NCBI GenBank assembly: GCA_026395055.1
Contig: JAPLZK010000002.1
Coordinates: 56,940-120,939 of the forward strand
Source: Candidatus Uhrbacteria bacterium
Lineage (GTDB): Bacteria > Patescibacteriota > Patescibacteriia > UBA9934 > GWF2-40-263
Length of the DNA stretch: 64,000 bases
Direction of reading: 5' to 3'
In this document: positions 4,103 to 29,451 of the stretch, one piece after another
Layout of the letters: each line of letters opens with the position of its first letter
Numbering within the stretch: position 1 is the stretch's first letter
The notes under the pieces: model-generated
Told to the model about the DNA's origin: nothing
What the model saw: only the letters and a program-made list of their open reading frames with translations
The model's database searches: none
Made by a program: the position numbers and the translations under genes

Positions 4103-4120
4103 TACAACAAGGAGAACATT

Positions 4121-4843: not shown

Positions 4844-4854
4844 TTCTTTTTCTC

Positions 4855-4921: not shown

Positions 4922-4944
4922 TTTTACAACAGGAGAACATCCGA

Positions 4945-5526: not shown

Positions 5527-5595
5527 TCTTGTTGATCGGGAGTGATGTACAACCAGCGTTTCTCAACAATCCCAATCGGGATGGAGGCAGTGTTC

Positions 5596-6081: not shown

Positions 6082-6097
6082 ACATAGGGAGTCTGTC

Positions 6098-6229
6098 ATG
6101 CAAGTGATGTATTTTCTCGGTAACGCAATGAATGTGGTGATCGTCGGTGGTCTCTTGGTTTCCGCCGTCGTCATTCCACGTGATCTACTGCGTGGCGCGT
6201 TCAGTCGCAGCGCGCAGCGCAAAGCGTAA
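6098..6229 (+). CDS. Small TM peptide (43 aa)
   Basis: gggag RBS 6 nt upstream. Single TM segment NVVIVGGLLVSAVVI. Short, so tentative. Confidence 0.3.
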   Translation: MQVMYFLGNAMNVVIVGGLLVSAVVIPRDLLRGAFSRSAQRKA

Positions 6230-6250
6230 TTCGACAACGTTCTTTCTCTT

Positions 6251-6316
6251 GGCGAGAATCTTCTCGCCTCTTTTCCAGAGACTCACATCGATGGATGATG
6301 TGGTGATCTGCGAAAG
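6251..6316 (+). promoter_or_regulatory. Island junction unit (IJU)
   Basis: GGCGAGAATCTTCTCGCC, TCTTTTCCAGAGA, CACATC/GATGTG stem, TCTGCGAAAG, then ATAAGGAGG. Confidence 0.75.
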
Positions 6317-6330
6317 ATAAGGAGGTTCCG

Positions 6331-6954
6331 ATGCGGGATTTGGAAGCGATGTATCTTGAACACTTGGCGTTCGTGCGTGCGAATCTTGCGCTGCTCGGCG
6401 TTGAGGATCCGGAAGTGATGATTGCGTTTCGTGTAACGGATCAACGGCATAAACAACCGGACCGAATGATTACGTTCGATCTTTCTCTCTCAGAAGCACT
6501 ACATCACGAAGTGTGTTGTGCATGGCGATCATTTTTCGCCCCGCGATGGCCGGAGGAAACGACTTACAAGCCTGAAGTGCAGATGAATGGGGAATTGTTC
6601 GGGTATCTTGATTCGTCAGGATTCCGTTACAAAGATCCGCCTTCGCTCAGGCTTGCCCTTGCGTGGATGATTGTTGCCAGGTGGGAAAATCCACCGTTTC
6701 TGTTTGATCTTGATAAGGCTGTGAGTGTTCTTGCTGCCGTAGTTGCCGAAGGTGTGACCGAAGAGATCTTTGTGATGAAGTGGCTTCCAGCCCTGAAACA
6801 CGTTTTCGCGTTGCAACCCGGGATGACTGTTCGGGATGGTTATCGATCGTCCGAGGTGTATCTCTGGCGTGTAGCAACAAAAGATGTGTACGGCGAATCA
6901 CACCCTGGGTATCCAGGACGTGTGGAGCCGTGTTATCTGTTGCGTGTTCTTTGA
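6331..6954 (+). CDS. Hypothetical cytoplasmic protein (207 aa)
   Basis: Strong RBS. No signal peptide. No family recognised. Confidence 0.5.
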   Translation: MRDLEAMYLEHLAFVRANLALLGVEDPEVMIAFRVTDQRHKQPDRMITFDLSLSEALHHEVCCAWRSFFAPRWPEETTYKPEVQMNGELFGYLDSSGFRYKDPPSLRLALAWMIVARWENPPFLFDLDKAVSVLAAVVAEGVTEEIFVMKWLPALKHVFALQPGMTVRDGYRSSEVYLWRVATKDVYGESHPGYPGRVEPCYLLRVL

Positions 6955-6961
6955 AGCGTTT

Positions 6962-7020
6962 GGCGAGAATCTTCTCGCCTCTTTTCCAGAGACAACAAAC
7001 AGGTTGTGGTCTCTCAGAAG
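6962..7020 (+). promoter_or_regulatory. Island junction unit (IJU)
   Basis: GGCGAGAATCTTCTCGCC, TCTTTTCCAGAGA, GAGACAAC/GTTGTGGTCTC stem, CTCAGAAG. Confidence 0.7.
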
Positions 7021-7073
7021 GTTACAGACAGCATCAGTTGCATGCGACCATCCGTCGTTTGCTTGGAGGAAGT

Positions 7074-7367
7074 ATGGCGTTACCGATCATTGGGTATCTC
7101 GCGCGTTCCGATTGGGAAGATCCCGAGGACAGCGTCGTTGTCGCGATCGAAGATTGCGCGGAACCACAAGTGTTCCGTGTGCTTGCCGCAGAATGGTGTG
7201 CGAAAGAAAACACTGTTCACGTTGTGACCAGGTGGATGCGCGGAAAAGCGCCGATCAAAGTTCGCCTTGGCGAATCCGCCGTTGACTCGATGGCGGAATG
7301 TAGTCTCAAGTTCTGTGCGACGGAAGCTCTGGCCATCGAATGGCTGGGGACACAGTCGCAGTCGTAG
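7074..7367 (+). CDS. Hypothetical protein (97 aa)
   Basis: tggagga RBS 4 nt before the ATG (MALPIIGY...). The longer ORF 6780-7367 overlaps the previous gene and the IJU. Confidence 0.45.
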   Translation: MALPIIGYLARSDWEDPEDSVVVAIEDCAEPQVFRVLAAEWCAKENTVHVVTRWMRGKAPIKVRLGESAVDSMAECSLKFCATEALAIEWLGTQSQS

Positions 7368-7388
7368 GTTGTTTATCGTTCCTTTCTT

Positions 7389-7455
7389 GGCGAGAATCTT
7401 CTCGCCCCTTTTTCAGAGATCAAGAGTGAATGGCATTTGTGGTTTCTGTCAGAAG
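7389..7455 (+). promoter_or_regulatory. Island junction unit (IJU), weaker stem
   Basis: GGCGAGAATCTTCTCGCC, CCTTTTTCAGAGA ... TTTCTGTCAGAAG. Confidence 0.6.
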
Positions 7456-7484
7456 TGTTTCGTTGTTTTGTACAGGAGGGAAAG

Positions 7485-7649
7485 ATGGCACTGTTGGCTT
7501 TCATTGCAGGATGTTTCGCGGGTTCGATCATGTTTGTCGTCGCATGCGGTCTCCTTGGATACCGGATGATGCGCTCGGTCATGAAGGGGCAGAAGCCTCG
7601 TCTCGATCGTCCCGACGTGAAATATACGTTTCCGAACAAAAAGGAATAA
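7485..7649 (+). CDS. Small TM protein (54 aa)
   Basis: AGGAGGG RBS. TM segment MALLAFIAGCFAGSIMFVVACGLLG. Confidence 0.4.
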   Translation: MALLAFIAGCFAGSIMFVVACGLLGYRMMRSVMKGQKPRLDRPDVKYTFPNKKE

Positions 7650-7651
7650 TC

Positions 7652-8020
7652 ATGTACGCACGAAATCAAAACGTGGCGGCATGGGTCGCTATCGTAAACG
7701 CAAACGGGTATCAAGAAGTTTGTCCCGTTTCGAAAACGCAAAATGTGTACGCGCAATTCTCTCCGGTGATCCTTCGCTGGAGTCGGGAAGGGGAAATCAT
7801 TCTCGAATTCGTGAACAAGCCGCGAGCGCGACCGTTCGACCCTGACGATGATCGCAAGAATGAAATCGTTCGCGTAAACATCGGCAACGGCGTGATCACG
7901 AAGCGTGACTCGGATTGGAATCCGATTCTGCGGTGTGTTCCATGCGCATCGCATGCGGAAGCAATCATCGAGGCCAAGCGATTGATGGAAGTCATGATGG
8001 ACTATCAGGCGGCGGCGTAA
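7652..8020 (+). CDS. Hypothetical protein (122 aa)
   Basis: Starts 2 nt after the previous stop. Followed by a strong terminator. Confidence 0.5.
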   Translation: MYARNQNVAAWVAIVNANGYQEVCPVSKTQNVYAQFSPVILRWSREGEIILEFVNKPRARPFDPDDDRKNEIVRVNIGNGVITKRDSDWNPILRCVPCASHAEAIIEAKRLMEVMMDYQAAA

Positions 8021-8031
8021 GGTTTTTTCTT

Positions 8032-8063
8032 GACCAGACTCGAATGAGTTTGGTCTTTTTTTT
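8032..8063 (+). terminator. Intrinsic terminator ending the small-ORF array
   Basis: gaccagact-cgaatg-agtttggtc hairpin followed by T8. Confidence 0.8.
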
Positions 8064-8071
8064 GATGATGG

Positions 8072-8115
8072 GCTCGAAACCTCCCCCAACCCCTCCTTTG
8101 CAGGAGGGGCTTTGG
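8072..8115. repeat. 44-bp inverted repeat, left arm
   Basis: gctcgaaacctcccccaacccctcctttgcaggaggggctttgg. A perfect reverse complement lies at 8536-8579. Contains the internal hairpin cccctcc/ggagggg. Confidence 0.95.
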
Positions 8116-8146
8116 GCGTAGATAAAAACACTCCGCGTGGGAGTGT

Positions 8147-8530
8147 TTAAATGTATTGGGTTGGTCGTGCTGGTTGTATTGCGAGAATTTGTTTGATTCT
8201 GCTAATGACAGAGTTTGTGTTGTTTATTACTTCGTCGTTTGTAAATCGAATCACTTTGATTTCGTATCCTTCAATTATTCGTGACCGTTCCTCGTCATGT
8301 GTTTTTCCTTCACTGGTAAAATGCTGCGAACCATCAAGTTCGATTGCCAATCGTTTTTCGGAGCAATAGAAATCTACAACGAAAGAATCAATACCATGTT
8401 GTCGACGAAACTTAAAGCCTAACTTCTTGTTTTTAAGATGCTCCCATAAATAATTCTCCGCACGCGTCGCTTCGTTACGAAGCACGCGCCTCACATCCTT
8501 TTGATAGAACCGATTAAAAAGTTCATGCAT
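8147..8530 (-). CDS. DUF559 (Vsr-like) endonuclease-domain protein (127 aa)
   Basis: Motifs LRNEATRAENYLWEHLK, FRRQH, VDFYC, AIELDGSQH, IRFTNDEV. Start set at MHELF, because the longer ORF runs into the repeat and smc. Confidence 0.75.
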   Translation of the reverse strand: MHELFNRFYQKDVRRVLRNEATRAENYLWEHLKNKKLGFKFRRQHGIDSFVVDFYCSEKRLAIELDGSQHFTSEGKTHDEERSRIIEGYEIKVIRFTNDEVINNTNSVISRIKQILAIQPARPTQYI

Positions 8531-15470: not shown

Positions 15471-16262
15471 TTACCCGTTTTGTGTTTGTTGCGCCAGCGT
15501 TTCCATTTTCCCGGAAACAGACCAAAGGAGTTCAAATAGTTGTTGAATCATTTCTCGGATTGATTTGCTTGTGATCATGACGTGCGCGCCTTCTGATTTG
15601 GTTGAGAAGATGACGATTGTGTCATCCCAAAACAAGATGGAGGCATGAAACGAGAGGTCTGCGGGGAGAAAACGTGCTTCGCGTAATTCTTTTGCATGGG
15701 TCGCGGCACTATATTGCTTAATTTCATGTGATCGAACACGGAGACTTTTTAAGTTGATGTTTTTTTGCACGCGACGTTTTGAATAGTGAAACTTTTCGCC
15801 GATAACTTCCTGAAATTCCTTTGCCGAGACAATCTCGTAAACCGTTTTGGATTTTGCGTTCAAGGATTCATTGAGAATATCGGTCACACGCTCGCGTTCG
15901 AAAATTTTGATGCGCGCCTGCTCGAGGGTTTCTGTTTTGAGTGAAGCAAGAAGTGGCAGAATGCCCGCAACGGATTTAGCTTGTTCGGTAAGAAGTGTTT
16001 TAAAGACATCTGGATGGTGTGCTTGAAAAACGCTGCGGGATTTATTTTTCGTGACATCAACCACACCTTTTTTCACAAGGCGTTGCATGGTGGATTGGAT
16101 GGTTGTGACAGGAAGCGATAATCGGCGGGCGAGGGGGGTGAGAGTTGTGGAACCCATTTCGAGGAGCGCAAGGTAAACGCGCTCATCTTTTGGATTAAAC
16201 CCAAATCCCGAGAGAACCTCGGTGATTTCCTGCTTTTGTTTGGGGGTGAATTGATTGGGCAT
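15471..16262 (-). CDS. TrmB-family transcriptional regulator
   Basis: N-terminal wHTH (YLALLEMGSTTLTPLARRLSLPVTTIQSTMQRLVKKGVV). Paralog of 32335-33102. First ATG used, since the ORF track starts at a TTG. Confidence 0.65.
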   Translation of the reverse strand: MPNQFTPKQKQEITEVLSGFGFNPKDERVYLALLEMGSTTLTPLARRLSLPVTTIQSTMQRLVKKGVVDVTKNKSRSVFQAHHPDVFKTLLTEQAKSVAGILPLLASLKTETLEQARIKIFERERVTDILNESLNAKSKTVYEIVSAKEFQEVIGEKFHYSKRRVQKNINLKSLRVRSHEIKQYSAATHAKELREARFLPADLSFHASILFWDDTIVIFSTKSEGAHVMITSKSIREMIQQLFELLWSVSGKMETLAQQTQNG

Positions 16263-16495
16263 ATCGAATGCGTAGGGGCGGGTCGTGACCCGCCCATCGA
16301 TCACAAAAAGTATATTTACGAAAAATATCGTAACAAATTTTTCGAACTTCGTCAATCAAATAAGCTAAAATTTATTGAACACCAAGTAAACATGTGAATT
16401 TTTATCGCATGAAATGTCTGTTTTGATTATTCTGTTGTTGTAAGTGATCGAGAGAGGTCACTTATGCCAAACGTTCCTTACAACAGAGGTGAATC

Positions 16496-16741
16496 ATGAA
16501 GGTTCTTACGGTGTTTCGTGGATCTCTTTGGTCTGATGTTTATCGCTGTAGTGCATGTCGCTCCACGATGCGTGTCGATCTGAAAGATCTTGAGCCGTTC
16601 TGGACTTCGCCAGCCTATGGTCCGCTTGATTGCGATTCGACATTGCATCTGTATTTCTATTGCGGACAGTGTCAGAAGAAAAATAAAATCGCGATCACAG
16701 AAAAATTGAAGACGTTGTTTCCAGAACCAAGTTCTTACTAA
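16496..16741 (+). CDS. MKVL zinc-ribbon paralog 1 (81 aa)
   Basis: MKVL N-terminus with CSAC...CGQC Cys pairs. RBS agaggtgaatc. Confidence 0.55.
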   Translation: MKVLTVFRGSLWSDVYRCSACRSTMRVDLKDLEPFWTSPAYGPLDCDSTLHLYFYCGQCQKKNKIAITEKLKTLFPEPSSY

Positions 16742-16753
16742 TGGGAGGACATC

Positions 16754-16987
16754 ATGAAAGTTTTGAAGAAAGGTCCTGATACGAATTGGGGCAAGGAGAT
16801 GCGGTGCACGGGGTACGGTCTCGGCACAACGGGCGGATGCGGTGCACTTTTGCTCGTGTCGCCTCGGGATGTGAAGAGTCACTACGACGATGGTGATACA
16901 TCCTATTGGTTTGTGTGTCCCGAGTGTGGTGCGCGGACCTATGTCACGAGTCGGACGTTTTCTCAACTGCAAGGAGGTGTCTCATGA
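16754..16987 (+). CDS. MKVL zinc-ribbon paralog 2 (77 aa)
   Basis: MKVLKKG...CTGYGLGTTGGCGALLLV...VCPECG. RBS gggagg. Confidence 0.6.
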   Translation: MKVLKKGPDTNWGKEMRCTGYGLGTTGGCGALLLVSPRDVKSHYDDGDTSYWFVCPECGARTYVTSRTFSQLQGGVS

Positions 16988-17244
16988 AGGTTCTTGAAAA
17001 GGGGCGGCCGCAAAAGGGTTGGAGTCATACGTACAAATGCACTGGTTCCGGAAATGGTGGTGGTGGGTGCGGAGCAAAGTTGCTTGTCGAGTTCAATGAT
17101 CTCTTCAAGACGCATCACTACGATTATGGTGGCGGACACGATGTCTACATCACCTTTTTGTGTGCTGAGTGTGGTGTTCTTACGGATATTGATTACTCCG
17201 GCCCCAACAGCAGCTCGATTCCCGATCACCGGAGGGTGTCATGA
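16984..17244 (+). CDS. MKVL zinc-ribbon paralog 3 (86 aa)
   Basis: MKVLEKG...CTGSGNGGGGCGAKLLV...LCAECG. ATGA overlap with paralog 2. Confidence 0.6.
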   Translation: MKVLEKGRPQKGWSHTYKCTGSGNGGGGCGAKLLVEFNDLFKTHHYDYGGGHDVYITFLCAECGVLTDIDYSGPNSSSIPDHRRVS

Positions 17245-17678
17245 TTCTCACCGTCGATATTCTCGTTACGATCGCAAAGAAAGAAGTTCTTCTCATCAAA
17301 CGTGCCAAGCCCCCATTCGAAGACAGGCTGGTAATGCCGGGCGGGCACGTGGAAGAGGAAGAAGAACTTTGTGTGGCGGCGGCGCGGGAGCTAGAGGAGG
17401 AAACACGACTGACCGTTTCTTCCGAAAGCCTCGTGCCGCTCCTCGTTCTCGATGCAATCGATCGTGATCCACGTCCGGGTCATCGCGTTTCCCATGTGTT
17501 CTGGATCGACTTGCTTGATCGTTCCATGGTTGAGATGTGTCGCGCCGAAAGTGATGCGAAAGAGATTGTGATTCGGTCACTCGATTCGCTTGTCGAGTCA
17601 GACATCGGATTCGATCACTGGTTCGCCCTCGAGAAACTCAAAAAGGAGATCGCTCATGAAAGTGCTCGAGTATCCTGA
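17241..17678 (+). CDS. NUDIX hydrolase (145 aa)
   Basis: Nudix box GGHVEEEEELCVAAARELEEETRL. ATGA overlap with the upstream gene. Confidence 0.8.
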   Translation: MILTVDILVTIAKKEVLLIKRAKPPFEDRLVMPGGHVEEEEELCVAAARELEEETRLTVSSESLVPLLVLDAIDRDPRPGHRVSHVFWIDLLDRSMVEMCRAESDAKEIVIRSLDSLVESDIGFDHWFALEKLKKEIAHESARVS

Positions 17679-17901
17679 TTTCTCTTGGTCTGAAGAACTG
17701 ACGTGTAAAAAGTGCGGAGCAAAGTTGCTCGCAGAAATTCAGGACGTGATTCTTGAGTCGACAGGTCGATTCTTTGTTGTCTGTCCTGTGTGTGGTGAGC
17801 GCTCTCACGCAAAAGAAGTTCTTCCCTGGTTTGTCCAAGCGCACGCGCGAGGACAACCGGTTGGTTGGCCGCCTGGTCAAAAACCAAAACCAAGAAACTA
17901 A
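17656..17901 (+). CDS. MKVL zinc-ribbon paralog 4 (81 aa)
   Basis: MKVLEYP...CKKCGAKLLAE...VCPVCG. aaggag RBS. Overlaps the NUDIX 3' end by 23 nt. Confidence 0.55.
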   Translation: MKVLEYPDFSWSEELTCKKCGAKLLAEIQDVILESTGRFFVVCPVCGERSHAKEVLPWFVQAHARGQPVGWPPGQKPKPRN

Positions 17902-17931
17902 AACCCGAGCGGTTCACTCTCGGGTTGTTTT

Positions 17932-18624
17932 TTATTTGATCGAATATCGTTTCAGCCATTCGTACATGGGGCCAATGGTGAATCCGACGACGCCTGCCCA
18001 CAGGATTTCCTCGAGAGGAATGCCACCCAGAATAAATTTGGAGAGCGTTGTCCACTCCCAATAGTTTGTGGCGATATCTGGAAAGAGTCGAATGAAAAAC
18101 AGTTGTTCTACAAGGAATACGAGTGCGGCTGTCATGAGTCCGGAGAGGAGTGCGTCAACAAGGAGGTCGTTTCTACTTGCAATAATATACATGCCGACCA
18201 TAACGCCACCGAAGAGCATGGCTTGGATGGGAGCGATAGAAAAAATGGCAATGGCTCCAAGAGAAAGACAGATCCAGGATCCGAGCACGAGAATCAAATG
18301 TGCAATCCAATGTGCGGCCGGATTTTTTAAACGTAACCGGTCGCCTTTTATTTTATGAACATGCTTACCAAGGAGAACGTGATATATAATGGCAGCAATT
18401 CCGAAAACGGAAAATCCAAAGAGGAGATCTTCTATTCCAAACGTGAAGGGAAGATCTGGGACAACGGCATGATAACTTGATCCAGCAATAAGAAGTAAAG
18501 CGGGAGTTATGACAAGCCCAACAATGCTCATGATGACTTGTTCTTTTCGTGTTTCTTTTGAAACAAAAAACAGGATGAGCCAGATGATAAATAAAACGAG
18601 AGAGGGAAGAAGGAATGGAGGCAT
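17932..18624 (-). CDS. Integral membrane protein (230 aa, ~7 TM)
   Basis: Continuously hydrophobic ORF. No family recognised. Confidence 0.6.
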   Translation of the reverse strand: MPPFLLPSLVLFIIWLILFFVSKETRKEQVIMSIVGLVITPALLLIAGSSYHAVVPDLPFTFGIEDLLFGFSVFGIAAIIYHVLLGKHVHKIKGDRLRLKNPAAHWIAHLILVLGSWICLSLGAIAIFSIAPIQAMLFGGVMVGMYIIASRNDLLVDALLSGLMTAALVFLVEQLFFIRLFPDIATNYWEWTTLSKFILGGIPLEEILWAGVVGFTIGPMYEWLKRYSIK

Positions 18625-20897: not shown

Positions 20898-21959
20898 ATG
20901 CACGCAGGCATGACGGTCAATGGATTGACAATCGGTGTTCATCGACCACGGAAAGATCCACGTCGCGGACGTGTACTTGCCGCGAGAGCACCACAAGGTG
21001 TGCATAACATTGCGGACTACAAAGATATGCCGCAAGGTTGGCCGCGTGCGCAAGGTCCAAACGAGTTGTCGTGTTTTGTGGGGGTCACAGATGAACATGA
21101 GATGTGGTTTGATGTGCGTCCGCTGAATCAGCATTCGCATTACGCTGCTGTGGTCGTGATCGTTCAGCGCGTGAATGCGCTGACCGCTCGCACAGCGGAT
21201 CACGTCTATCTCGAGAAATACGTAGACACGTGTCCGAAGCATGAGACTCTATTCGAGGCAGAACGCTTTTGCCCGGAATGCAAGTTCAAGTGGCCGGCAC
21301 AAAACTACATCACCAATGCGGGCGGTGCAGATTCGGAGAGGCAGTTCTGGCTTGATGGTTGGCGTAGCCAAGACGGTGAGATTCGCCAGTTCGTCTTTGC
21401 GGACGTGGAAAAGGGTCTTGGCGTTGCACAGCAGTTGATTGGCGAAGAGCGCACGGCGGACATTCGCTTCGCGATATTCCTTTCGAAGGAACCGAAGCCT
21501 GTTCCGCCGCGCTTGCAAGCTGCACGTCGTGGCGGGGGAGATATTGTCGATTGTTATTTGGGTGACAATACGAAGGGTGGCGGCTTTTTGGGTCACGCTC
21601 TGAATAGTCCCGTGTTCGGCGCAAAGGTTGATTCAAGCTCGCAAACGCGTTCCTTGAACATGATGGCGACGCTTGGTGCTTCCAGTTTGGGTGATGAGGA
21701 CGCGTCGTTCTTGCAAGGAAACGATCCAAGGACGATCGGTGCTCCGGTGAAGCAGGAGGTTTCCTTTGGTCGCGCGGTGGACCAGAAGATTCATCCGGAT
21801 CCGCATGACATTGGCTTCTGGCAGGACGAACCCGCTGCGGTCATCATGCTCACGCCAGCACCTGCGGCTTGGGTTGAGACCGTGACGCGCAATGGCGCGA
21901 CGGTTGATCGCACGCTTGGCGGTATGGGGCCGCTCGCGGGATTGAAGGGCGTTGGCTAA
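20898..21959 (+). CDS. Hypothetical protein with CPKH...CPEC zinc-ribbon (353 aa)
   Basis: Long GC-rich ORF. No family recognised. Start uncertain. Confidence 0.5.
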   Translation: MHAGMTVNGLTIGVHRPRKDPRRGRVLAARAPQGVHNIADYKDMPQGWPRAQGPNELSCFVGVTDEHEMWFDVRPLNQHSHYAAVVVIVQRVNALTARTADHVYLEKYVDTCPKHETLFEAERFCPECKFKWPAQNYITNAGGADSERQFWLDGWRSQDGEIRQFVFADVEKGLGVAQQLIGEERTADIRFAIFLSKEPKPVPPRLQAARRGGGDIVDCYLGDNTKGGGFLGHALNSPVFGAKVDSSSQTRSLNMMATLGASSLGDEDASFLQGNDPRTIGAPVKQEVSFGRAVDQKIHPDPHDIGFWQDEPAAVIMLTPAPAAWVETVTRNGATVDRTLGGMGPLAGLKGVG

Positions 21960-21971
21960 GACGGGACTCTT

Positions 21972-21998
21972 GAAAGCTGAAAGGCTTTCTTTTTTTTG
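21972..21998 (+). terminator. Intrinsic terminator
   Basis: gaaagc-tgaaag-gctttc hairpin followed by T9. Confidence 0.7.
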
Positions 21999-22047
21999 GA
22001 GGGGCAAGGGATTAGTAGCTAACTGGCTTACTAACCCCTAACCCCTC

Positions 22048-22085
22048 TTGACGTTTCTTTAGTATGTGTATAACCTACACTTAGT
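22048..22085 (+). promoter_or_regulatory. Promoter P1 with 28-bp box TTTAGTATGTGTATAACCTACACTTAGT
   Basis: TTGAC at 22048. The box differs at a single base (C for T) from the one at 23671-23698. Confidence 0.65.
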
Positions 22086-22270
22086 GGCACATGTCGCCCG
22101 GAAAACGGACGGGAAACGCTTGACATAATCCGGATCCGCGACTAGGGTGCTGTATTGTTCTTTCTTGCTGGCGAATGGCTTTGAGAAGATTCTGTGAATC
22201 TTTTGAAAGCCGTTCGTCATCAGGGTGTTCCTGAAGTTGCCGTGCGGTGGTTCTCACAAGGAGTATTTCC

Positions 22271-23614
22271 ATGCCCGCCAAGCCCAAGGCACCCGTTGCC
22301 GCTACTGCCGAATCCGGCGCCACTGTTCCCCCCGCGAGTCCGAAGTGGACGGCGCTCGTCGAAAAGTTTGCGGCCTCGACCGGTCTCGGTATCGAAGTCG
22401 TTGGCCCTCGTTTCAAGACGCTCACTGGCACGGACGACGACGCTGGTGTGGAGTTGCTCGAGAACGCGGCAGACACGCCCGACCAGGAATTGAAGACGTT
22501 GTTCGCGGCTGATGGTGTCGCTTCGGCGCGCCTGAATCGCGCGATTCGCGAGATGCGTTTGGTTGCAGCTCCTGTCGTCCCCGTCGCTCCGGCGCCTGGT
22601 CCGTCCGCGGCCGTTCCGAACGTTGGTTCGACTCCGATTCTGCTGACGCAGGCTCCGGGGGACGATGATCTTCTCCGCGCGTTGCGGATTGGCGGTCGTC
22701 CCGAATTCGAAGCGGCCAACTTGGCTGCGGTCATTCGCGCGGCTGTCGCGGCGAAGAACGGATTGTATGGGTTGCCGAAGCGCTTGCAGGAGGCGATTCA
22801 CGAGACGGCTCGTCGTACCAAGAAGCCTGCCCCCGCTGTGCTCGTCGAAATTCGTCGCGAGCTTGCTCGGCGCAGTGATCAGGCCGCGTTGTTCGCCGAT
22901 CTGATGCCCGGTCAGGATGGTGCGAACTACGTCACGGCCGAAGACAAGGTCCAGACCATCAAGGATCTCGACAAGGTTTGGCCGGCGTTCATGCAATTTC
23001 AGCAGCAGCTTCGTGGTTTCCGCGATGAAGCGGTGAACGTTGCCATGACGGCAGGGATGATGGGCATGCAAGGCATGAACATGGGTCTCGCTGCCGCGGG
23101 TCTCACCCCGGAAATGCTGGTTGGTACCAGTTTGGATGCCCAACCGTACGTAGACGCGAGTGAAGGGATCATCAATGCCCTGAACGAGGTCTTCGCGGAC
23201 ATGGGTTTGTACGCTTCGCGCGTGCTTGCCGTGGAAGCGCATCGGTTGACGCAAATCGTGCAGAAGGACGAATTGATCGCTGCCGTTGGCGCGACCAATC
23301 GCGAAGAGATGTTGCTGACGCTGAAGATCGGCATGACGTCCGACGTCATCCGTGCGCAGCAGAACCTGGTGACGTGGGTCGTGAACGTGATCGATCTGCC
23401 GAACAAGGATGCTATGAGTTTGCGCGGCGTGCTTCTCACGTTGTTCCAGCTCGGTGAGCAGATTCCGTGGGAAAAGCTCAGCAATGGCGCGGTCAGCTTG
23501 CCGCGGCAGTCGATGGGCAATGGCGCGAGCCGCCCCTCAATGGACGGCCGTCCGCTCCCCGGCCAAAAGCAGCCCGGCAACACGGCGTTCAGCAGCAACA
23601 ACGGCCGCGACTAG
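22271..23614 (+). CDS. Hypothetical protein, Ala/Pro-rich N-terminus (447 aa)
   Basis: aaggag RBS 7 nt before the ATG (MPAKPKAPVAA...). Met/Gly-rich patch MTAGMMGMQGMNMGL. No family recognised. Confidence 0.55.
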   Translation: MPAKPKAPVAATAESGATVPPASPKWTALVEKFAASTGLGIEVVGPRFKTLTGTDDDAGVELLENAADTPDQELKTLFAADGVASARLNRAIREMRLVAAPVVPVAPAPGPSAAVPNVGSTPILLTQAPGDDDLLRALRIGGRPEFEAANLAAVIRAAVAAKNGLYGLPKRLQEAIHETARRTKKPAPAVLVEIRRELARRSDQAALFADLMPGQDGANYVTAEDKVQTIKDLDKVWPAFMQFQQQLRGFRDEAVNVAMTAGMMGMQGMNMGLAAAGLTPEMLVGTSLDAQPYVDASEGIINALNEVFADMGLYASRVLAVEAHRLTQIVQKDELIAAVGATNREEMLLTLKIGMTSDVIRAQQNLVTWVVNVIDLPNKDAMSLRGVLLTLFQLGEQIPWEKLSNGAVSLPRQSMGNGASRPSMDGRPLPGQKQPGNTAFSSNNGRD

Positions 23615-23627
23615 AAGCCCTTTCCTC

Positions 23628-23655
23628 AGAACGTCCCAAAAAGACGTTCTTTTTT
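23628..23655 (+). terminator. Intrinsic terminator
   Basis: agaacgtc-ccaaaaa-gacgttct hairpin followed by T5. Confidence 0.8.
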
Positions 23656-23660
23656 GTTGC

Positions 23661-23698
23661 TTGACAAGAGTTTAGTATGTGTATAATCTACACTTAGT
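23661..23698 (+). promoter_or_regulatory. Promoter P2 (TTGACA ... TATAAT) carrying the same 28-bp box as P1
   Basis: TTGACAagagTTTAGTATGTGTATAATCTACACTTAGT. Confidence 0.7.
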
Positions 23699-23893
23699 AA
23701 CGCATTTCATTACCTTCCCCTTGCGAAGGGGGAGCATGAGGGGGTCTGTGGCTAAAAGCCTTGACATTCCGCTGTTATTTCCTTAAGGTTCGCCCTTGTT
23801 TTTCTTCCGGAATCGAACAATGTGTCCGCTTCGGGAAGGGAAACAAACACAAGGTTTGTCTCGCGCGTCCTTTTCACAACAGAGGGATCATCC

Positions 23894-25537
23894 ATGCACA
23901 CTTTGCCAGACGTTCGTACGCTTCCGCTTCCGTCCAAATTCCTTGTCGCGCTTCAGAAACTGATTCTTCGCACGCTTGAGATCTCTGGGTCAAAGATGGG
24001 GAATCAACTCGTCGAAGCGATTTTTGGAAAAACCATCACGTTTGGTCAACTCCAGATTCCTTCTATGCAAGATTGTGTTGAAGCGATTCGGGGCGAAGGT
24101 ATGACGCGTCCAAACATTCGCATTCGTGAACTCGTAGATCTCTTTGGAGCGATCAACCCAACAACGCCTGTGTGCGATGAGTGTGGTGAGTTTGCCATCA
24201 ATCAGATCGGTGGAAAGTTCATGGAACTTCAGCCCGACGAACTCTGTCCGTTTTGTTTGCAGGGCCACGTCAAGATCGAACCGATGATTCTGCGTACGGT
24301 GAACTGGGCAACTGGTGAACTCGTTGTGCCGAACATTGATTACGATTCACACTCGCGCATTGGTCTCGGCATTCCGCTGACTGATGAAGCGATTGTGAAG
24401 TGGGCGGATGGAATCAATATGGATTTGGATGCCGCACTCGTTGCGGCAAAGATTTCCATTCACGGGTTCCTTGCGTACCTGTATCTGCGTCAGCATGCAT
24501 TCGCACAGCTCGAAGACGTTCCGAAATTTCTGTTGAGTCCACGTGGATTCGATACGAAGTATTCGGAAGAGACACTCGATCGTCTCATACGTGAGGCATC
24601 GCAATTTCTGGATGTGCGTGAGATCACAAATCTTCCGCACAAGAAATTTCTTCCTGATGGTCGTCGTCGCGATGAGTTTACCTCGATCACAATCGGTGGT
24701 CGCGCGTATCTCATCGATGGCAAGATTGGTGAAGGAGATAAGTGCGATGTGTACGCTGGTCGATGGGATCACGAGCCGACGGAGCGTGTCGTCGTAAAGA
24801 TTGCACGCGTTGGCGTGAGTGATGATCGACTGCGTGCGGAGCGCACAAATCTTGAGTTGCTCGCGAAGAGTGATGCGCAAGGCGTGGAATTTTTTCGCCA
24901 ACTGCTTCCGGAAATCATTTCGTTCGGCAGCGTACAAGATCCAAACGGGCAATCACGCTCGTGTGTGGTCTATCGCGATCGAAACGGATTTGATTGGACC
25001 CTCGCTGACGTGATGCGTGCGTACCCACAAGGAGTGGAGCCACAGACGATGGTCTGGATGTTCAATCGAACACTCATGTTGCTTGCGTGGATGCATGAAC
25101 ATGACATTGTGCACGGTGCTCTCACACCTGGGCACATGCTCATTCATCCGAAGTATCACGGACTCATGTTTCTTGACCTCGCGTATGCGGGTCGAATCGG
25201 ACAGCCGCTTCCGGATGTCGAACCTTCACACGTGCTCTATCGTCCAAGTGCATCGCTTACCAACAATGTCTTTCACCCAATGATGGACATCTGTATGGCA
25301 GCGCGATGCATGATTGTGGTCATGGGAGGAAACCTCGAGCAAAAAACGATTCCGACAACTGTGCCGGATCCGCTCGCGGCGCTCTTGTCCAACCTCGCAT
25401 TTCCGGATGATAGCCATTTGTGGGGTTCGCGTTTTGCCAAGTTGGCCGATCAAGTCAAAGCAAGCTTTGGCGCGATTGCGGAAACGGTTTACGGCCCGAG
25501 GAAGTATCACGCATTTGAAATGCCACCCGTGGCATAG
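23894..25537 (+). CDS. Protein-kinase-fold protein, probable pseudokinase, with N-terminal CxxC...CxxC zinc-ribbon (547 aa)
   Basis: Gly-loop IGEGDKCDVY, VVVKIA Lys, ERTNLELL. Catalytic loop IVHGALTPGHMLI has Ala in place of the catalytic Asp. DFG position reads FLDLAYAG. RBS agaggga. Confidence 0.6.
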   Translation: MHTLPDVRTLPLPSKFLVALQKLILRTLEISGSKMGNQLVEAIFGKTITFGQLQIPSMQDCVEAIRGEGMTRPNIRIRELVDLFGAINPTTPVCDECGEFAINQIGGKFMELQPDELCPFCLQGHVKIEPMILRTVNWATGELVVPNIDYDSHSRIGLGIPLTDEAIVKWADGINMDLDAALVAAKISIHGFLAYLYLRQHAFAQLEDVPKFLLSPRGFDTKYSEETLDRLIREASQFLDVREITNLPHKKFLPDGRRRDEFTSITIGGRAYLIDGKIGEGDKCDVYAGRWDHEPTERVVVKIARVGVSDDRLRAERTNLELLAKSDAQGVEFFRQLLPEIISFGSVQDPNGQSRSCVVYRDRNGFDWTLADVMRAYPQGVEPQTMVWMFNRTLMLLAWMHEHDIVHGALTPGHMLIHPKYHGLMFLDLAYAGRIGQPLPDVEPSHVLYRPSASLTNNVFHPMMDICMAARCMIVVMGGNLEQKTIPTTVPDPLAALLSNLAFPDDSHLWGSRFAKLADQVKASFGAIAETVYGPRKYHAFEMPPVA

Positions 25538-25542
25538 CTCTT

Positions 25543-25626
25543 CGTAGAGGAGGGGATTTACTTCTCCTCTACGAAATCTTTTTCCTGACTTGAAACGTGT
25601 ACACAAAATTTGTGCACGCATTTCAG
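25543..25626 (+). promoter_or_regulatory. Island junction unit, W variant
   Basis: cgtagaggag...ctcctctacg hairpin, TTTTTCCTGA, long imperfect hairpin gaaacgtgtacacaaa/tttgtgcacgcatttc, TTTCAGA. Confidence 0.6.
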
Positions 25627-25688
25627 ATCATGAATCTGAATCGAACAAAGGGTTCGAGGAACGTTCTTCACAACACAGGAGTCAGCAC

Positions 25689-26636
25689 ATGGGTGGCGGA
25701 TTTTACGATTACCGTGCACACGAAGCAACAACGGTTGCGCGTGCAGCCAAACCCATTCAAGTGGTGTTTTCACAAACGGCGTGTCATCCGCTCATGGATC
25801 CGAAAGGATTGCGTGTGCGTGAATCACGTGACAGTTTGGAACATCCAAACTCGCGTGCGATTCTCTTTGGAGTCGATGTGACGAAGTCGATGGGGCCAAT
25901 CCCAGAAGGGTTGGCAAAGCGAACATTGCCGCAATTCATGCGCGCCGTGCTCCGCGTCATTCCGCATCCGCAGATTTGTTTTGTTGGCATCGGTGACGCA
26001 CTCGATGGGGATCGCGCTCCGCTTCAAGTGGGTGAGTTCGAAAGTTCGCACGCGCTTATTGATGCGAGTCTTACGCGTCTGTACATCGAAGGTGGTGGTG
26101 GATCCATCGGAAGTGAGTCTTATGAGAACATGTTTTATCTGGCTGCACGTCATACGTCGATTGACTGTTGGGAGAAGCGTCGCGAAAAGGGGTATCTCTT
26201 TTTGACTGGCGATGAAACTCCGTATCCAAACGTGATTGCCTCCACGATCAATCGATTGATTGGTCCAGGAACGCTGACCGCAAACATTCCCATCGAAGCA
26301 ATCATTGCAGAAGCAAGTGTGAAATATCATCCGTTCTTTTTTATTCCAGACCAAGGTCGCTCACTCACGATTGAACGTTCGTGGCGCAACAAGCTTGGGG
26401 ATGCAGTGATCGTTCTTCAAAATCCGGAAGATACGTCCGTTGCGGCCGCGATCTTGATTGGCCTCTGCGAAGGCGTTTATCAACATCTCGACGACGTGCG
26501 TCAGGCACTTGCAACGGAGTTTGATCGAAAGGGCGATGCGTTGTATCGCGTTGTTTCATCTGTTGAAGCATACGCCGCATCCATTGGACTTGGTGGCGCG
26601 CGCCGTCCGGTTTTGTCGCAAGGTGTGCGGTGGTGA
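25689..26636 (+). CDS. vWA-domain protein 1 (315 aa)
   Basis: MIDAS-like FGVDVTKSMG, later IGDA and LFLTGDETP. Paralog of the next gene. Confidence 0.65.
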   Translation: MGGGFYDYRAHEATTVARAAKPIQVVFSQTACHPLMDPKGLRVRESRDSLEHPNSRAILFGVDVTKSMGPIPEGLAKRTLPQFMRAVLRVIPHPQICFVGIGDALDGDRAPLQVGEFESSHALIDASLTRLYIEGGGGSIGSESYENMFYLAARHTSIDCWEKRREKGYLFLTGDETPYPNVIASTINRLIGPGTLTANIPIEAIIAEASVKYHPFFFIPDQGRSLTIERSWRNKLGDAVIVLQNPEDTSVAAAILIGLCEGVYQHLDDVRQALATEFDRKGDALYRVVSSVEAYAASIGLGGARRPVLSQGVRW

Positions 26637-26649
26637 TTCCAATTTCTTT

Positions 26650-26731
26650 GTAGGGGAGGGTGACTATTCTCCCCTACACCATTTTTTCCTGAACTGAAAT
26701 ATCTATTCGATCATCGAATGTATATTCCAGG
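26650..26731 (+). promoter_or_regulatory. Island junction unit, W variant
   Basis: gtaggggag...ctcccctac hairpin, TTTTTTCCTGAA, long imperfect hairpin ending TTCCAGG. Confidence 0.6.
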
Positions 26732-26819
26732 TCATGAATCTGGTTCTGTTATCGAGGGTTCGATTCCAGAAGTGTCTCATATTCCGATTTCGATCGGAAG
26801 TACACAAGGTAGGTGTCTC

Positions 26820-27794
26820 ATGGGCAGTGGTGGTTGGGATCATAGCGCTTCAACGGCGCGTTCACAGACGCGTTCGGCGCGTTCTGTTCAAGAAACGGTG
26901 TTGCAGGATTTTACGCAGACGCGTGAAAGCCGAATCCATCCGGGGATGCATCCGAATGGGCTCGTGTTTCGCGAGTCGCGTGACAGTGTGGAACATCCGA
27001 AGTCTCGTGCAATCATCGGTTCGCTCGACATCACGCAGTCGATGCAGGGGCTTCCGCCGCTGCTCGCGCGTGAGACGTTGCCGCAACTGATGGCAGGCGT
27101 TTTGCCGATTTTGCCGGATGCACAACTGTGCTTCATGGCGTTCGGTGATGCGGATGATGGACACAACTATCAAGGACCGTGGCAGGTTGGTCAGTTCGAG
27201 AGCTCGGATGAGCTTGCGGACGCGTGGCTGACGCGCATCTGGTTGCAAGGGAGTGCTGGTTCGTCTCCGTGCGAATCCGCGGACCTCATCTTGTACACGG
27301 CGGCTCGGCTCACGCGCATCGATTGTCACGAGAAGCGTGGCGAGAAAGGTTATCTGTTCATTCTGACCGATGACACGTGCCGCGACTACGTTTGTGCGGC
27401 AACGGTGAACAAGTGGCTTGGTCGTCAGGAACTCGATGAGAACGTCTCGATCGAGGCGATCATTCAGGAAGCTGCTGAAAAGTACCACATCTTCGTGTTG
27501 ATCCCGGATCAGGCGCGTGCGGTGCAGATGCGTGGCGGCGAGCGCGTCATCGATCACTATCGTCGTCGTATCGGCAACGGGGCGATTGCGCTTGGTGGGT
27601 ACCAGGACACGTCCATCGTTGCGGCCATGCTCATCGGCCTCACCGAAGGCGCGTACAACATGTCGAACGTCGACCATGAGTTGCGCACGCGGTACGGCAA
27701 GTCGGGTGACGAGCTGAATCGGTTGCTCATGATCCTGCGTCCGTACGCGGAATCCCTGCCGAAGACGCCGCTCATCGTGGATCTGCCCGTCTGA
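26820..27794 (+). CDS. vWA-domain protein 2 (324 aa)
   Basis: GSLDITQSMQG MIDAS-like motif, FGDADD, LFILTDDT. Shares the HPxMxPxGLxxRESRDSxEHPxSRAI N-terminal block with vWA-1. Confidence 0.65.
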   Translation: MGSGGWDHSASTARSQTRSARSVQETVLQDFTQTRESRIHPGMHPNGLVFRESRDSVEHPKSRAIIGSLDITQSMQGLPPLLARETLPQLMAGVLPILPDAQLCFMAFGDADDGHNYQGPWQVGQFESSDELADAWLTRIWLQGSAGSSPCESADLILYTAARLTRIDCHEKRGEKGYLFILTDDTCRDYVCAATVNKWLGRQELDENVSIEAIIQEAAEKYHIFVLIPDQARAVQMRGGERVIDHYRRRIGNGAIALGGYQDTSIVAAMLIGLTEGAYNMSNVDHELRTRYGKSGDELNRLLMILRPYAESLPKTPLIVDLPV

Positions 27795-27806
27795 GTTCTT
27801 TCTTCT

Positions 27807-27870
27807 GAGGTTCAACGGGAACCTCCTTTTTTACAAGTGATGATCACAGGGATGATTGCTTCTAGAAAAG
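27807..27870 (+). promoter_or_regulatory. Island junction unit
   Basis: GAGGTTC-aacg-GGAACCTC, CTTTTTTACA, tgatgatca/tgattgc stem, TAGAAAAG, then GGAGGAG RBS. Confidence 0.7.
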
Positions 27871-27891
27871 TTCTAGCTTCGGAGGAGTCCT

Positions 27892-29277
27892 ATGACTCGA
27901 CATGCTCATCTTGTCGTTGATCTTTCAAACGGGGATGCAGGAAAAGGAACGATCGTGGATGCGCTCGTGCGGAAGTATCGTGCGCATACCGTGATTCGAT
28001 TCAATGGCGGTGCGCAAGCGGCGCATCGTGTTGTGACCGGTGACGGTCGCGAACATATTTTTTCCCAATTCGGTTCAGGAACATTTGTTCCGGGTGTGCG
28101 CACTGTGCTTTCGAAGTACGTGCTCGTTCAGCCGTGGGCGCTTGTTCCGGAAGCGGAGCATCTCGAAGAGCTCGGCATTACGGATGCCTTTGATCGATTG
28201 TTTATTCATGAAGACGCACTCATCATCACACCATTTCATCGAGCGGCAAATCGCTTGCGTGAACGTGCGCGTGCAAAATGGGATGGTCGACATGGGAGTT
28301 GCGGAATCGGCGTTGGCGAGACGGCACATGATGCGCTCACGCTCAAGGAATCGCTCGTGGTTCGCGTGCGTGACTTGCGTGATCTGGGTGCGTTGAAAGA
28401 AAAACTGCAACGCGTGCAAAAACAAAAAGCGTTTCATGTTGATGCGATGATGTTTCAACTGATCGACGATCCAGAAGCCTCCGTAGACATTATCGAACTC
28501 GAAGATCCGGAAGCGGCAACATCTTGGATCAAGCAGCTCGAAGCGGTGCTACCGAAACTGAATATCATTGATGACACATGGTTTGCATCTCTCTTGAACG
28601 AACCAGGTCACATCGTGTTTGAAGGTGCACAAGGTGTGCTCATTGATGAGTCACGCGGATTTCATCCGTACACCACGTGGTCGAATTGTACATTTCAAAA
28701 CGCGCTCGACTTGCTCGCAAACTACGATGGAGAGATTCATAAGATCGGAGTTGTCCGAGCGTATGCGACGCGCCATGGTCCTGGTCCGTTTGTGACGGAA
28801 GATGTTCATCTCACAGAACGTCTGCCGGACGCATGTAATAAAATGGATCCATGGCAGCGTGGATTTCGCGTCGGCCACTTCGATTGCACCTCTACTCGAT
28901 ATGCGATCTCGGCTTGTGACGGCATCGACTCGCTTGCGATTACATGTCTCGACCGCTTGCGCGATGAGCCTGCGTGGAAGATCTGCACATATTATGAACT
29001 TGCTCCAGAAGATGAAGAAAGCACGTTGTTCTATGTTGTGAAGACGTTTCGAGGTTTTCGCCTCTGGATGGACCCTGGACCGTTCCAAGACCTTATATAC
29101 CAAGAGCGACTCACGCACGCACTCGAGCGCGCGAAGCCCGTGCTTCACATTACAACCACGTCAGGAACGTTCGATGAACGCGTCGAACACCATGTCCGCG
29201 AGATTACACAAGAACTCAACGTTCCTGTCTCGATCCTTTCGTTCGGTCCAACAGCAGAAGATAAGAAATTTCTCTAG
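27892..29277 (+). CDS. Adenylosuccinate synthetase family enzyme (PurA/PurZ-like, 461 aa)
   Basis: P-loop GDAGKGTIVD, RFNGGAQAAH, GSCGIGVGE, FEGAQGVLIDESRGFHPYTTWS and ATRHGPGPFVTE, in the canonical PurA order. Confidence 0.8.
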   Translation: MTRHAHLVVDLSNGDAGKGTIVDALVRKYRAHTVIRFNGGAQAAHRVVTGDGREHIFSQFGSGTFVPGVRTVLSKYVLVQPWALVPEAEHLEELGITDAFDRLFIHEDALIITPFHRAANRLRERARAKWDGRHGSCGIGVGETAHDALTLKESLVVRVRDLRDLGALKEKLQRVQKQKAFHVDAMMFQLIDDPEASVDIIELEDPEAATSWIKQLEAVLPKLNIIDDTWFASLLNEPGHIVFEGAQGVLIDESRGFHPYTTWSNCTFQNALDLLANYDGEIHKIGVVRAYATRHGPGPFVTEDVHLTERLPDACNKMDPWQRGFRVGHFDCTSTRYAISACDGIDSLAITCLDRLRDEPAWKICTYYELAPEDEESTLFYVVKTFRGFRLWMDPGPFQDLIYQERLTHALERAKPVLHITTTSGTFDERVEHHVREITQELNVPVSILSFGPTAEDKKFL

Positions 29278-29301
29278 ATGCGAATGATTCGCATCTTTTT
29301 T
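29277..29301 (+). terminator. Intrinsic terminator ending the kinase-vWA-vWA-PurA operon
   Basis: gatgcgaa-tga-ttcgcatc hairpin followed by T6. Confidence 0.85.
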
Positions 29302-29359
29302 GTTGGCCAAGAACCCCCTCCTTATCAAGGAGGGGGCAGGGGGTGGTCGGGTATCAACC

Positions 29360-29388
29360 TTGACCTAATCGCCATATTCTGGTAGGCT
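29360..29388 (+). promoter_or_regulatory. Sigma70-like promoter
   Basis: TTGACC, 17-nt spacer, TAGGCT. Confidence 0.55.
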
Positions 29389-29451
29389 TCCGCTCGTTGT
29401 GTGTGGAGTGTCTGTGCACAATATGTTTCTCAAACACAAGGGTAAACGTCC

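Follow-up and report, generated by a model that had tools for sequence, protein, structure and literature searches.

A family of small zinc-ribbon proteins encoded with a minimal NUDIX hydrolase in Patescibacteria and shared with phages

Introduction

Why would a bacterium surround the gene for one small NUDIX hydrolase with several genes for even smaller zinc-ribbon proteins? The question is raised by a 64,000-nucleotide stretch of a Candidatus Uhrbacteria contig (JAPLZK010000002.1, positions 56,940 to 120,939; hereafter the window), in which three ribbon genes that we call zr1, zr2 and zr3 precede a NUDIX gene and a fourth, zr4, follows it. A first-pass annotation of this DNA saw in the arrangement an accessory or a conflict locus. 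What stands of that framing is a diversified family of tiny zinc-binding proteins coupled to NUDIX; its conflict part fares poorly. The reading we prefer, which we hold tentatively and at just short of an even call, is drawn from comparative sequence analysis: the ribbons may be accessory partners of a minimal NUDIX enzyme of ADP-ribose/nucleotide housekeeping, whose specificity, targeting or regulation they would help to set. The locus looks more like conserved nucleotide/ADP-ribose housekeeping than like a defence island.

Results

Ribbon genes recur beside NUDIX genes and are fused to them

Loci were gathered through a motif of the zr3 type, which gave 22 genome, 13 viral and 80 metagenome loci, and their neighbouring genes were clustered (L and P numbers denote the loci and proteins of this collection). 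Of 21 informative genome loci, 16 have a NUDIX gene as the next gene downstream and in the same orientation; this holds for 18 of 58 metagenome loci and for 0 of 13 viral loci. The coupling of the ribbon family to NUDIX that the first-pass annotation suspected is genuine. Immediately upstream, a divergent TrmB-like gene (~260 aa) is found in 26 related loci, and 20 of the 21 genome loci contain a NUDIX or a TrmB-like gene. The module of TrmB-like gene, ribbon genes and NUDIX gene recurs in metagenome-assembled genomes (MAGs) of Patescibacteria titled Uhrbacteria, Falkowbacteria, Parcubacteria group and Saccharibacteria, and the position of zr4 after the NUDIX gene is repeated in L038, L118 and L119. 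Across Uhrbacteria a longer synteny is kept, in which VanW, Hsp20 and TrmB-like genes are followed by the ribbon genes, the NUDIX gene (with or without a further ribbon) and a gene for a 230-aa membrane protein. The module is also found in records titled 'uncultured Gammaproteobacteria' (L001, L004, L005, L007, L010, L013, L017, L018). The taxonomy of these records calls for caution because some of them show the Uhrbacteria-type order VanW-Hsp20-TrmB-like, and the labels look like placeholders or mis-assignments.

A second ascertainment started from homologues of the NUDIX protein, to offset the ribbon-based sampling, and ribbons were verified with the hidden Markov model of the family. All three homologues with at least 50% identity (P0136, P0146, P0152) show the order TrmB-like gene, ribbon gene or genes, NUDIX gene. 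Among the loci found in this way, L125 carries three separate ribbon genes, L126 four, and L128 one in addition to a ribbon fused to the C-terminus of the NUDIX domain. At 46% identity or less the arrangement was seen in none of four homologues, namely those from a Proteobacteria MAG, a Bacteroidales MAG, an unlabelled metagenome contig and a classical NrtR-pncB pair.

The strongest evidence that ribbon and NUDIX work together is their fusion in both orders, in several clusters that share less than 90% identity. The ribbon precedes the NUDIX domain in P0147, P0157, P0326, P0355 and P0383, while in P0152, P0153 and P0160 a ribbon of the CxxC type is joined in frame to the C-terminus of the NUDIX domain. 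The latter order mirrors the overlapping NUDIX and zr4 genes of the window, and P0152 occurs within the TrmB-like, ribbon, NUDIX context. Ribbons are also fused to NTPase_I-T, a YjjX-type ITPase/XTPase domain (P0296, P0378).

We propose that the ribbons would bind the NUDIX domain, or the substrate or target of that enzyme, in the way supposed for N-terminal ribbons and other accessory domains that larger NUDIX enzymes carry in cis. The various ribbon paralogues could then provide alternative specificity, targeting or regulation of a single NUDIX, in a pathway that may be ADP-ribose/nucleotide housekeeping or salvage in an auxotrophic cell with a reduced genome.

The ribbons belong to a large and unnamed family

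BLASTP connects zr2 with zr3 (4.5e-16, 49% identity), zr2 with zr4 (6e-9) and zr3 with zr4 (1e-5). Against the family profile zr4 scores E 5.8e-17, and a profile from which zr1 had been left out still recovers it at E 1.8e-5; when the six-frame open reading frames (ORFs) of all loci collected up to that point were scanned, zr1 was the sole match in the window besides zr2-zr4 (E 0.03). By these comparisons the four small ORFs are true homologues, not chance look-alikes.

Each of zr1-zr4 has the two Cys knuckles flanking beta strands that define a zinc-ribbon fold. All four (77-86 aa) begin with MKVL and carry the second CxxC motifs that the first-pass annotation quoted, while the '(A/G)(K/L)LL(V/A)' strand ascribed to all of them is present in zr2-zr4 and is replaced by STMRV in zr1. 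The first Cys pair is spaced CxxC in zr1 and zr4, Cx10C in zr2 and Cx9C in zr3. M1, W13 and D39, together with the cysteines C19, C29, C60 and C63, are invariant in every paralogue type, and the core (zr3) type additionally carries the motif CTGxGNGGGGCGAKLLVE. An AlphaFold2 model of zr3 (predicted local distance difference test score, pLDDT, 80) has five strands and predicts disorder for the conserved MKVLxKG at the N-terminus. The ribbons make up a large, unnamed C4 zinc-ribbon family with proteins of ~70-90 aa.

The paralogues differ in how widely they are distributed. A single database match exists for zr1, the identical protein P0001 on a 339-kb contig of a Candidatus Uhrbacteria MAG; zr2 has orthologues elsewhere (P0005, P0010, P0016); and homologues of zr3 that are 52-88% identical occur in MAGs labelled, as deposited, Patescibacteria, Firmicutes (Coprovivens, Erysipelotrichaceae) and Gammaproteobacteria, with others on viral contigs at 43-67%. 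A profile of the four paralogues matched 570 proteins in a word-indexed search, and a broader family profile matched 1,186 clusters at 50% identity with E <=1e-3 (476 at 1e-10).

Precomputed Pfam domains are absent from all 120 family proteins listed, and the four ribbons of the window match no model of Pfam, NCBIfam or PADLOC above threshold. Named ribbon families (Zn_ribbon_3, DZR, Lar, DUF7560, Zn_ribbon_Nudix) were considered and set aside, as they gave only sub-threshold matches to the knuckles in Pfam, NCBIfam, PADLOC and PHROGs. No structural neighbour of the family was found in the PDB, and in the literature searched on zinc ribbons with NrtR or Nudix, on Patescibacteria with Nudix or TrmB, on NARP and on NrtR the family is not described. 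The first-pass annotation had been unable to place the family, and the absence of Pfam, NCBIfam and PADLOC matches and of a PDB neighbour agrees with it; relatives conserve the small ORFs, which do not belong to a known housekeeping ribbon family.

The window carries one five-gene operon

The co-directional genes zr1-zr2-zr3-NUDIX-zr4 form one operon of five genes (Table 1): they have Shine-Dalgarno (SD) sites, adjoining genes overlap at ATGA in two places and by 23 nt in a third, and a terminator ends the run. Purine-rich SD-like motifs of the four ribbon ORFs (GAGGTG, GGGAGG, AGGAGG and AGGAG) end 4-7 nt before the ATG. The ATGA overlaps at zr2/zr3 and zr3/NUDIX, and the start of zr4 23 nt inside the NUDIX gene, are as first described. 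The terminator folds at -14 kcal/mol (z -3.9), and 1 of 200 shuffled sequences folds as well.

Table 1. Coordinates in the window of the operon and of the regulatory features beside it
Feature	Position	Strand	Description
TrmB-like winged-helix regulator	15471-16262	-	Pfam PF01978, 3.4e-13, 49.7 bits vs cutoff 25.6
Palindrome TACGAAAAATATCGTA	16317-16332	.	Candidate operator of the TrmB-like regulator
Leader hairpin	16441-16464	+	Inverted repeat with 9-bp stem and GAGAGA loop, in the presumed 5' untranslated region of the operon
Leader motif AACGTTCCTTACAAC	16470-16484	+	Directly before the first SD site; one exact match in the window
zr1	16496-16741	+	81 aa; divergent, lineage-specific zinc-ribbon paralogue (CSAC ... 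YCGQC)
zr2	16754-16987	+	77 aa; zinc-ribbon paralogue of the 'GYGLG..GGCGALLLV' subfamily
zr3	16984-17244	+	86 aa; core, most conserved ribbon type (CTGxGNGGGGCGAKLLVE ... CxxC)
NUDIX	17241-17678	+	145 aa; minimal hydrolase with intact catalytic box, probably of the NadM-Nudix/NrtR (ADP-ribose) clade
zr4	17656-17901	+	81 aa; CxxC-type ribbon paralogue after NUDIX, 23-nt overlap
Intrinsic terminator	17902-17937	+	Closes the operon; 8-bp GC-rich stem followed by a U-run

Two other impressions of the first-pass annotation concerned composition and translation signals. The higher GC content reported for the cluster applies to zr2, zr3, NUDIX and zr4 (0.49-0.54, against 0.41-0.46 in neighbours) and not to zr1 (0.44). 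Further GC-rich stretches lie at 1-8200 and 21000-32000 (0.50-0.59), where long overlapping ORFs on both strands make gene calls ambiguous; GC heterogeneity is a general trait of the window and not peculiar to the ribbon/NUDIX cluster. The proposed likeness of the first ribosome-binding context to those of the array at 0-8 kb is at chance level (16 matches with <=2 mismatches against 14.9 expected).

The window is a piece of a Patescibacteria (candidate phyla radiation, CPR) chromosome, not of a phage or plasmid. Its other cellular genes encode SMC, a DHH phosphoesterase, ClpP, VanW, Hsp20, the TrmB-like regulator, a lycopene-cyclase-like membrane protein, riboflavin synthase and lumazine synthase. 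The conserved wider synteny of Uhrbacteria speaks against a recently acquired island, and with the general GC heterogeneity of the window it led us to reject a recent horizontal origin.

The NUDIX enzyme and its replacements point to ADP-ribose/nucleotide-diphosphate metabolism

The NUDIX gene product is a member of its superfamily (PF00293, E 2.9e-16, 60.1 bits, cutoff 21.1). Its Nudix box, GHVEEEEELCVAAARELEEETRL, keeps all positions of the pattern GX5EX7REUXEEXGU except the penultimate G, which is R. By sequence its nearest relatives are NadM-Nudix and NrtR, through sub-threshold profile matches, and by fold the NUDIX domain of the fusion homologue P0147 is near the same two groups. The winged-helix domain of NrtR (PF21906) is absent from the window protein, whose 145 aa hold the NUDIX domain only, and is present in the ribbon partners of the Firmicutes loci L011 and L014.

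In reduced-genome Firmicutes the variant order is a ribbon gene, an NrtR-like gene (degenerate Nudix box plus NrtR winged helix) and a second, catalytic NUDIX gene. A Cu-oxidase_4 (YfiH/LACC1-type) domain often comes next, after or fused to the second NUDIX (L014 7577-8311; L052 2994-4217; L056). The links of this domain family to purine nucleoside metabolism would suggest an operon for nucleotide-to-nucleoside salvage. Also in Firmicutes relatives, one or two copies of a protein of 125-142 aa (cluster f7) that we could not name precede the ribbon gene, and in one lineage a reverse transcriptase (~320-337 aa, RVT_1 3e-22) lies upstream of f7, which could be a retron-/DRT-like neighbour or a coincidence (L021, L096, L097 and L105, at about 4.4-6.0 kb; L051, L052, L056, L069).

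In three further loci (L018 7216-8193, L049 2113-2775, L050 4955-5926) a divergent protein resembling phosphoribosyl pyrophosphate (PRPP) synthetase replaces the NUDIX after the ribbon. It matches human PRPS1 at ~1e-17, and in L049 and L050 the ribbon is preceded by a TrmB-like gene. This neighbour recalls NrtR-regulated prs and phage Adps: prs is a known member of the NrtR regulon (PMC2330246). In phage NARP1, enzymes of the PRPS-like kind are reported to use ADP-ribose. Taken together, the NrtR-like, Prs-like and NadM-type NUDIX partners point to ADP-ribose/nucleotide-diphosphate metabolism.

The same partners bear on the idea that the ribbons are ligand-binding buffers, carriers or sponges for an ADP-ribose-like nucleotide, feeding the NUDIX and Prs-like enzymes, with phage copies that sequester ADP-ribose-derived immune signals. 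The NadM/NrtR-clade NUDIX, the NrtR-like sensors and the Prs-like enzyme could all act on or sense ADP-ribose, and phage proteins that sequester Thoeris cyclic-ADP-ribose signals are described in a recent source (10.64898/2026.05.28.727677). Conservation in the ribbons also has a suggestive pattern, in that besides the initiator Met and four Cys only W13 and D39 are invariant, with a Gly-rich CTGxGNGGGGC loop added in the core type. However, this loop is missing from zr1 and zr4, the domain is very small and the phage neighbours are heterogeneous, and we give the idea little credence.

A TrmB-like regulator and a probable operator accompany the ribbon genes

The TrmB-like gene is the most constant neighbour of the ribbon array in Patescibacteria and is present in the NUDIX-ascertained loci L125, L126 and L128 as well. 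Its family profile matches TrmB of P. furiosus (3qph) at 1e-10 over residues 12-162, and the protein has a TrmB winged helix and a coiled coil; no known sugar-binding domain was matched by the C-terminal half. A second TrmB-like regulator, recognised by the similarity of its N-terminal sequence, lies in the window at 32335-33102, and the organism appears to carry several.

In most Patescibacteria loci examined, the start codon of the TrmB-like gene coincides with or adjoins a palindrome of the form CTACGA-N6-8-TCGTAG; the palindrome was seen in the intergenic regions of L001-L013, L022, L044, L049, L050, L075 and L107, and in the window also at 16263-16275. The copy listed in Table 1 is the sole match to TACGA-N4-10-TCGTA in the 64 kb. 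Judged from its position and recurrence, the palindrome is likely an autoregulatory operator, through which the TrmB-like protein would repress both the operon and its own gene. Half-site-like copies occur nearer the ribbon genes, and in several loci the position of the palindrome leaves no room for an SD site. A different, perfect 20-bp GC-rich palindrome, GGGCGGGTCGTGACCCGCCC, stands at 16276-16295, with the TrmB-like start codon on one side and the operator-like palindrome on the other; unique in the window, it is common to L006 and L038 and missing from other loci.

The operon leader folds at -20.4 kcal/mol (z -2.5). Relatives have a hairpin at the same place with different stem sequences, including, by eye, one compensatory change from A-T to G-C relative to L006, and in most Patescibacteria loci GTTC(C/A)TTACAA precedes the first ribbon gene. 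An upstream TTCTGTTGT is able to pair with ACAACAGAG beside the SD site. The leader has no match in Rfam, and RNAalifold returned only weak anti-SD pairing and no covariation, so we make no claim of a riboswitch.

The presence of regulators invites a second interpretation, namely that the ribbons are themselves small regulatory factors that bind nucleic acids or RNA polymerase and are co-regulated with the NUDIX without acting on it, the phage copies being early host-takeover factors. A winged-helix regulator, either TrmB-like upstream or NrtR-like downstream, adjoins the ribbons in 20 of 21 genome loci, and zinc ribbons in general often bind nucleic acids or polymerases. Many members have basic C-terminal tails (KKRKY, RRRRSR, KPKPRN), the disordered MKVLxKG N-terminus resembles a docking peptide, and the homologue in phage Lacusarx sits within a one-strand run of small hypothetical genes. 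Several points tell against it. A transcription factor would not usually be fused in frame to enzymes again and again, as the ribbons are (NUDIX in both orders, YjjX-type NTPase); by residue count the core of zr3 has no net charge (9 K/R vs 9 D/E); and the ribbons resemble none of the known DNA- or RNA polymerase-binding ribbons. We regard this interpretation as unlikely, if the more serious of the alternatives, and continue to prefer a partnership of the ribbons with the enzyme.

Copy number varies under purifying selection

Ratios of nonsynonymous to synonymous substitution rates (dN/dS) were computed against the close metagenome relatives L117-L119 for the four genes other than zr1, which has no homologue. 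The values are 0.05 for zr2 (vs L117), 0.10-0.28 for zr3, 0.15-0.26 for NUDIX and 0.10-0.25 for zr4, and these four genes are under purifying selection. The locus L117, with a zr2 that is 94% identical, lacks zr1 and has the same leader directly before zr2, and L119 has zr3-NUDIX-zr4 only; zr1 is therefore an extra first gene of the operon, specific to its lineage. More generally, loci have 1 to 5 tandem ribbon genes, and the number differs even among close relatives. The paralogues are not recent local duplicates: subtypes recur, including zr3-like core, zr2-like, CxxC zr4-like and first-position types.

These results bear directly on the conflict hypothesis, in which the ribbons would be decoys, inhibitors or antitoxin-like checks on a potentially toxic pyrophosphatase of nucleotide or NAD derivatives, diversifying under phage pressure. 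The change in copy number from 1 to 5 between relatives and the orphan status of zr1 are what it would lead one to look for; so are the homologues in phages and large IMG/VR contigs, the reverse-transcriptase gene upstream in one Firmicutes lineage, and a weak match (1e-6) of the NUDIX to the single-gene PADLOC candidate PDC-S07. However, selection is purifying rather than diversifying, the core synteny is conserved across Uhrbacteria, the ribbons have no PADLOC match and no defence gene is adjacent in the window. The supposed toxin and antitoxin are fused in both orders, and other neighbours are salvage enzymes (Prs-like; YfiH/LACC1-type nucleoside enzyme). Moreover, the partner of the ribbon is often a catalytically dead NrtR-like regulator, so that no toxin would be present. 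A conflict locus is thus improbable in our judgement, and an accessory role beside the NUDIX remains the reading we carry forward.

Stand-alone relatives occur in phages

Ribbon homologues that stand alone are found in phages and in IMG/VR contigs of up to 452 kb (jumbo-sized). Among the isolated phages of INPHARED the only match is Sphingobium phage Lacusarx, whose LAV_00162 resembles zr3 by tblastn (48% identity, 4e-4) and by Foldseek (3.8e-7, TM 0.75). The family is likely a distant relative of phrog_2834 on profile evidence: 19 of 24 family members match it at E <=0.01 (best 1.1e-6), and the four ribbons of the window do so at E 9e-4 to 8e-3 (zr1 0.0076). No ribbon match was found among PLSDB plasmids, and the window NUDIX has no phage match at 1e-5.

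The 150 phage neighbour ORFs form a heterogeneous set with no recurrent partner; an RNA ligase occurs in two cases, and a NAD kinase, a NAD synthase, a dCMP deaminase, a nucleoside hydrolase and others occur singly. In L019 (5258-5998), on a contig binned as Janthinobacterium lividum, a gene for a TET-associated glycosyltransferase (TAGT, 9e-24) precedes the ribbon gene, which points to a phage-like DNA-modification context.

Under the accessory-partner model, the phage homologues would be stand-alone versions of the same small module. A bolder version, which we offer as a long shot, is that the family may be an unrecognised class of tiny ribbons that bind ADP-ribose-type nucleotides or dock onto nucleotide-pyrophosphate enzymes; phages could then use it as an anti-defence sponge or adaptor against NAD/ADP-ribose immunity, and bacteria with reduced genomes as interchangeable NUDIX specificity subunits.

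Discussion

Weighing the accessory-partner model

Several observations weigh against the model of ribbons as partners of the NUDIX. NUDIX is not the only context of the ribbon, since none of the 13 viral loci adjoins one, several Patescibacteria loci have TrmB-like and ribbon genes with no NUDIX gene, and several long family members join the ribbon to unrelated or unknown C-terminal regions. The AlphaFold2 model of the fusion P0147 is confident overall (pLDDT 92.5), and its predicted TM score (pTM) of 0.72 is no proof of a fixed interface between the domains. The ADP-ribose substrate proposed for the window NUDIX derives from sub-threshold profile matches, and such specificity is not general, because the NUDIX of P0355 looks MutT-like by eye and two fusions involve YjjX-type NTPases. 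Finally, with the zr3-type motif as the entry point to most loci, the definition of the family itself is biased.

If the model is correct, it would give a function to a nameless family of more than 1,000 protein clusters. The substrates of NUDIX enzymes are hard to assign, and a separate, duplicable ribbon subunit that sets specificity or targeting would be a new route by which a minimal hydrolase can diversify. The module is also among the few conserved units of regulator plus operon visible in Patescibacteria, whose nucleotide/NAD economy is scavenged from hosts. Its sharing between phages and cells, together with its ADP-ribose-linked partners (NrtR-like, Prs-like, NadM-type NUDIX), touches the field of NAD/ADP-ribose conflict between phage and host. 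Should the locus serve plain housekeeping, the value of these findings would lie mainly in annotation.

Comparison with known systems

The attachment of a zinc ribbon to a NUDIX domain in cis is already known from PF14803 (Zn_ribbon_Nudix) and from the zinc motif of the NADH pyrophosphatase NudC (PF09297); we take PDB 3cng to be an example that carries PF14803. The ribbon described here is about twice as long (~70 aa, five strands). It is also mostly a separate gene in 1-5 copies, is N- or C-terminal when fused, and occurs without NUDIX. Only zr4 matches PF14803, with 12 bits (E 0.2) where the cutoff is 25.6, and it is not a member.

Resemblance to NrtR and NadM-Nudix systems (PMC2330246) is closer in the enzyme and its neighbours. 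The window NUDIX is nearest to that clade, Firmicutes relatives of the module carry a genuine protein of NUDIX domain and NrtR winged helix in one, with a degenerate box, and a prs-like gene is an alternative neighbour here as in the NrtR-regulated prs-nadV operons (PMC2330246). Unlike NrtR, however, the window NUDIX has no DNA-binding domain and keeps its catalytic box, the regulator is apparently of TrmB type, and the operon contains no NAD biosynthesis gene (nadV, pncB, nadD/E). A keyword look-up in PMC2330246 returned no zinc-ribbon gene ('zinc' and 'hypothetical' 0 times each).

Other small ribbons offer more distant parallels. Phage proteins of the phrog_2834/Lacusarx type stand alone among small hypothetical genes rather than beside NUDIX, and the match to phrog_2834 does not name the family because those phage proteins have no known function. 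The Lar restriction-alleviation proteins (PF14354; phrog_6795, phrog_6422) are likewise short two-knuckle ribbons of similar size; zr4 scores E 0.023 and 15.4 bits against a cutoff of 28.6 and is not a member, and matches to Lar-like PHROG families are marginal and below threshold (E 0.002-0.007 in 1-2 members). In Bacillus phage G a zinc ribbon has expanded to ~35 copies, for which roles as specific transcription factors or structural components were proposed (PMC7824862). The parallel lies in the multiplication of a small zinc-ribbon gene within one genome. The copies described here differ in being few, ancient and positionally ordered, and in their association with NUDIX and TrmB-like genes of cellular genomes. 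What is new at this locus is a longer, unrelated ribbon family that is mostly split from its enzyme, duplicated, linked with a TrmB-type regulator and also present in phages.

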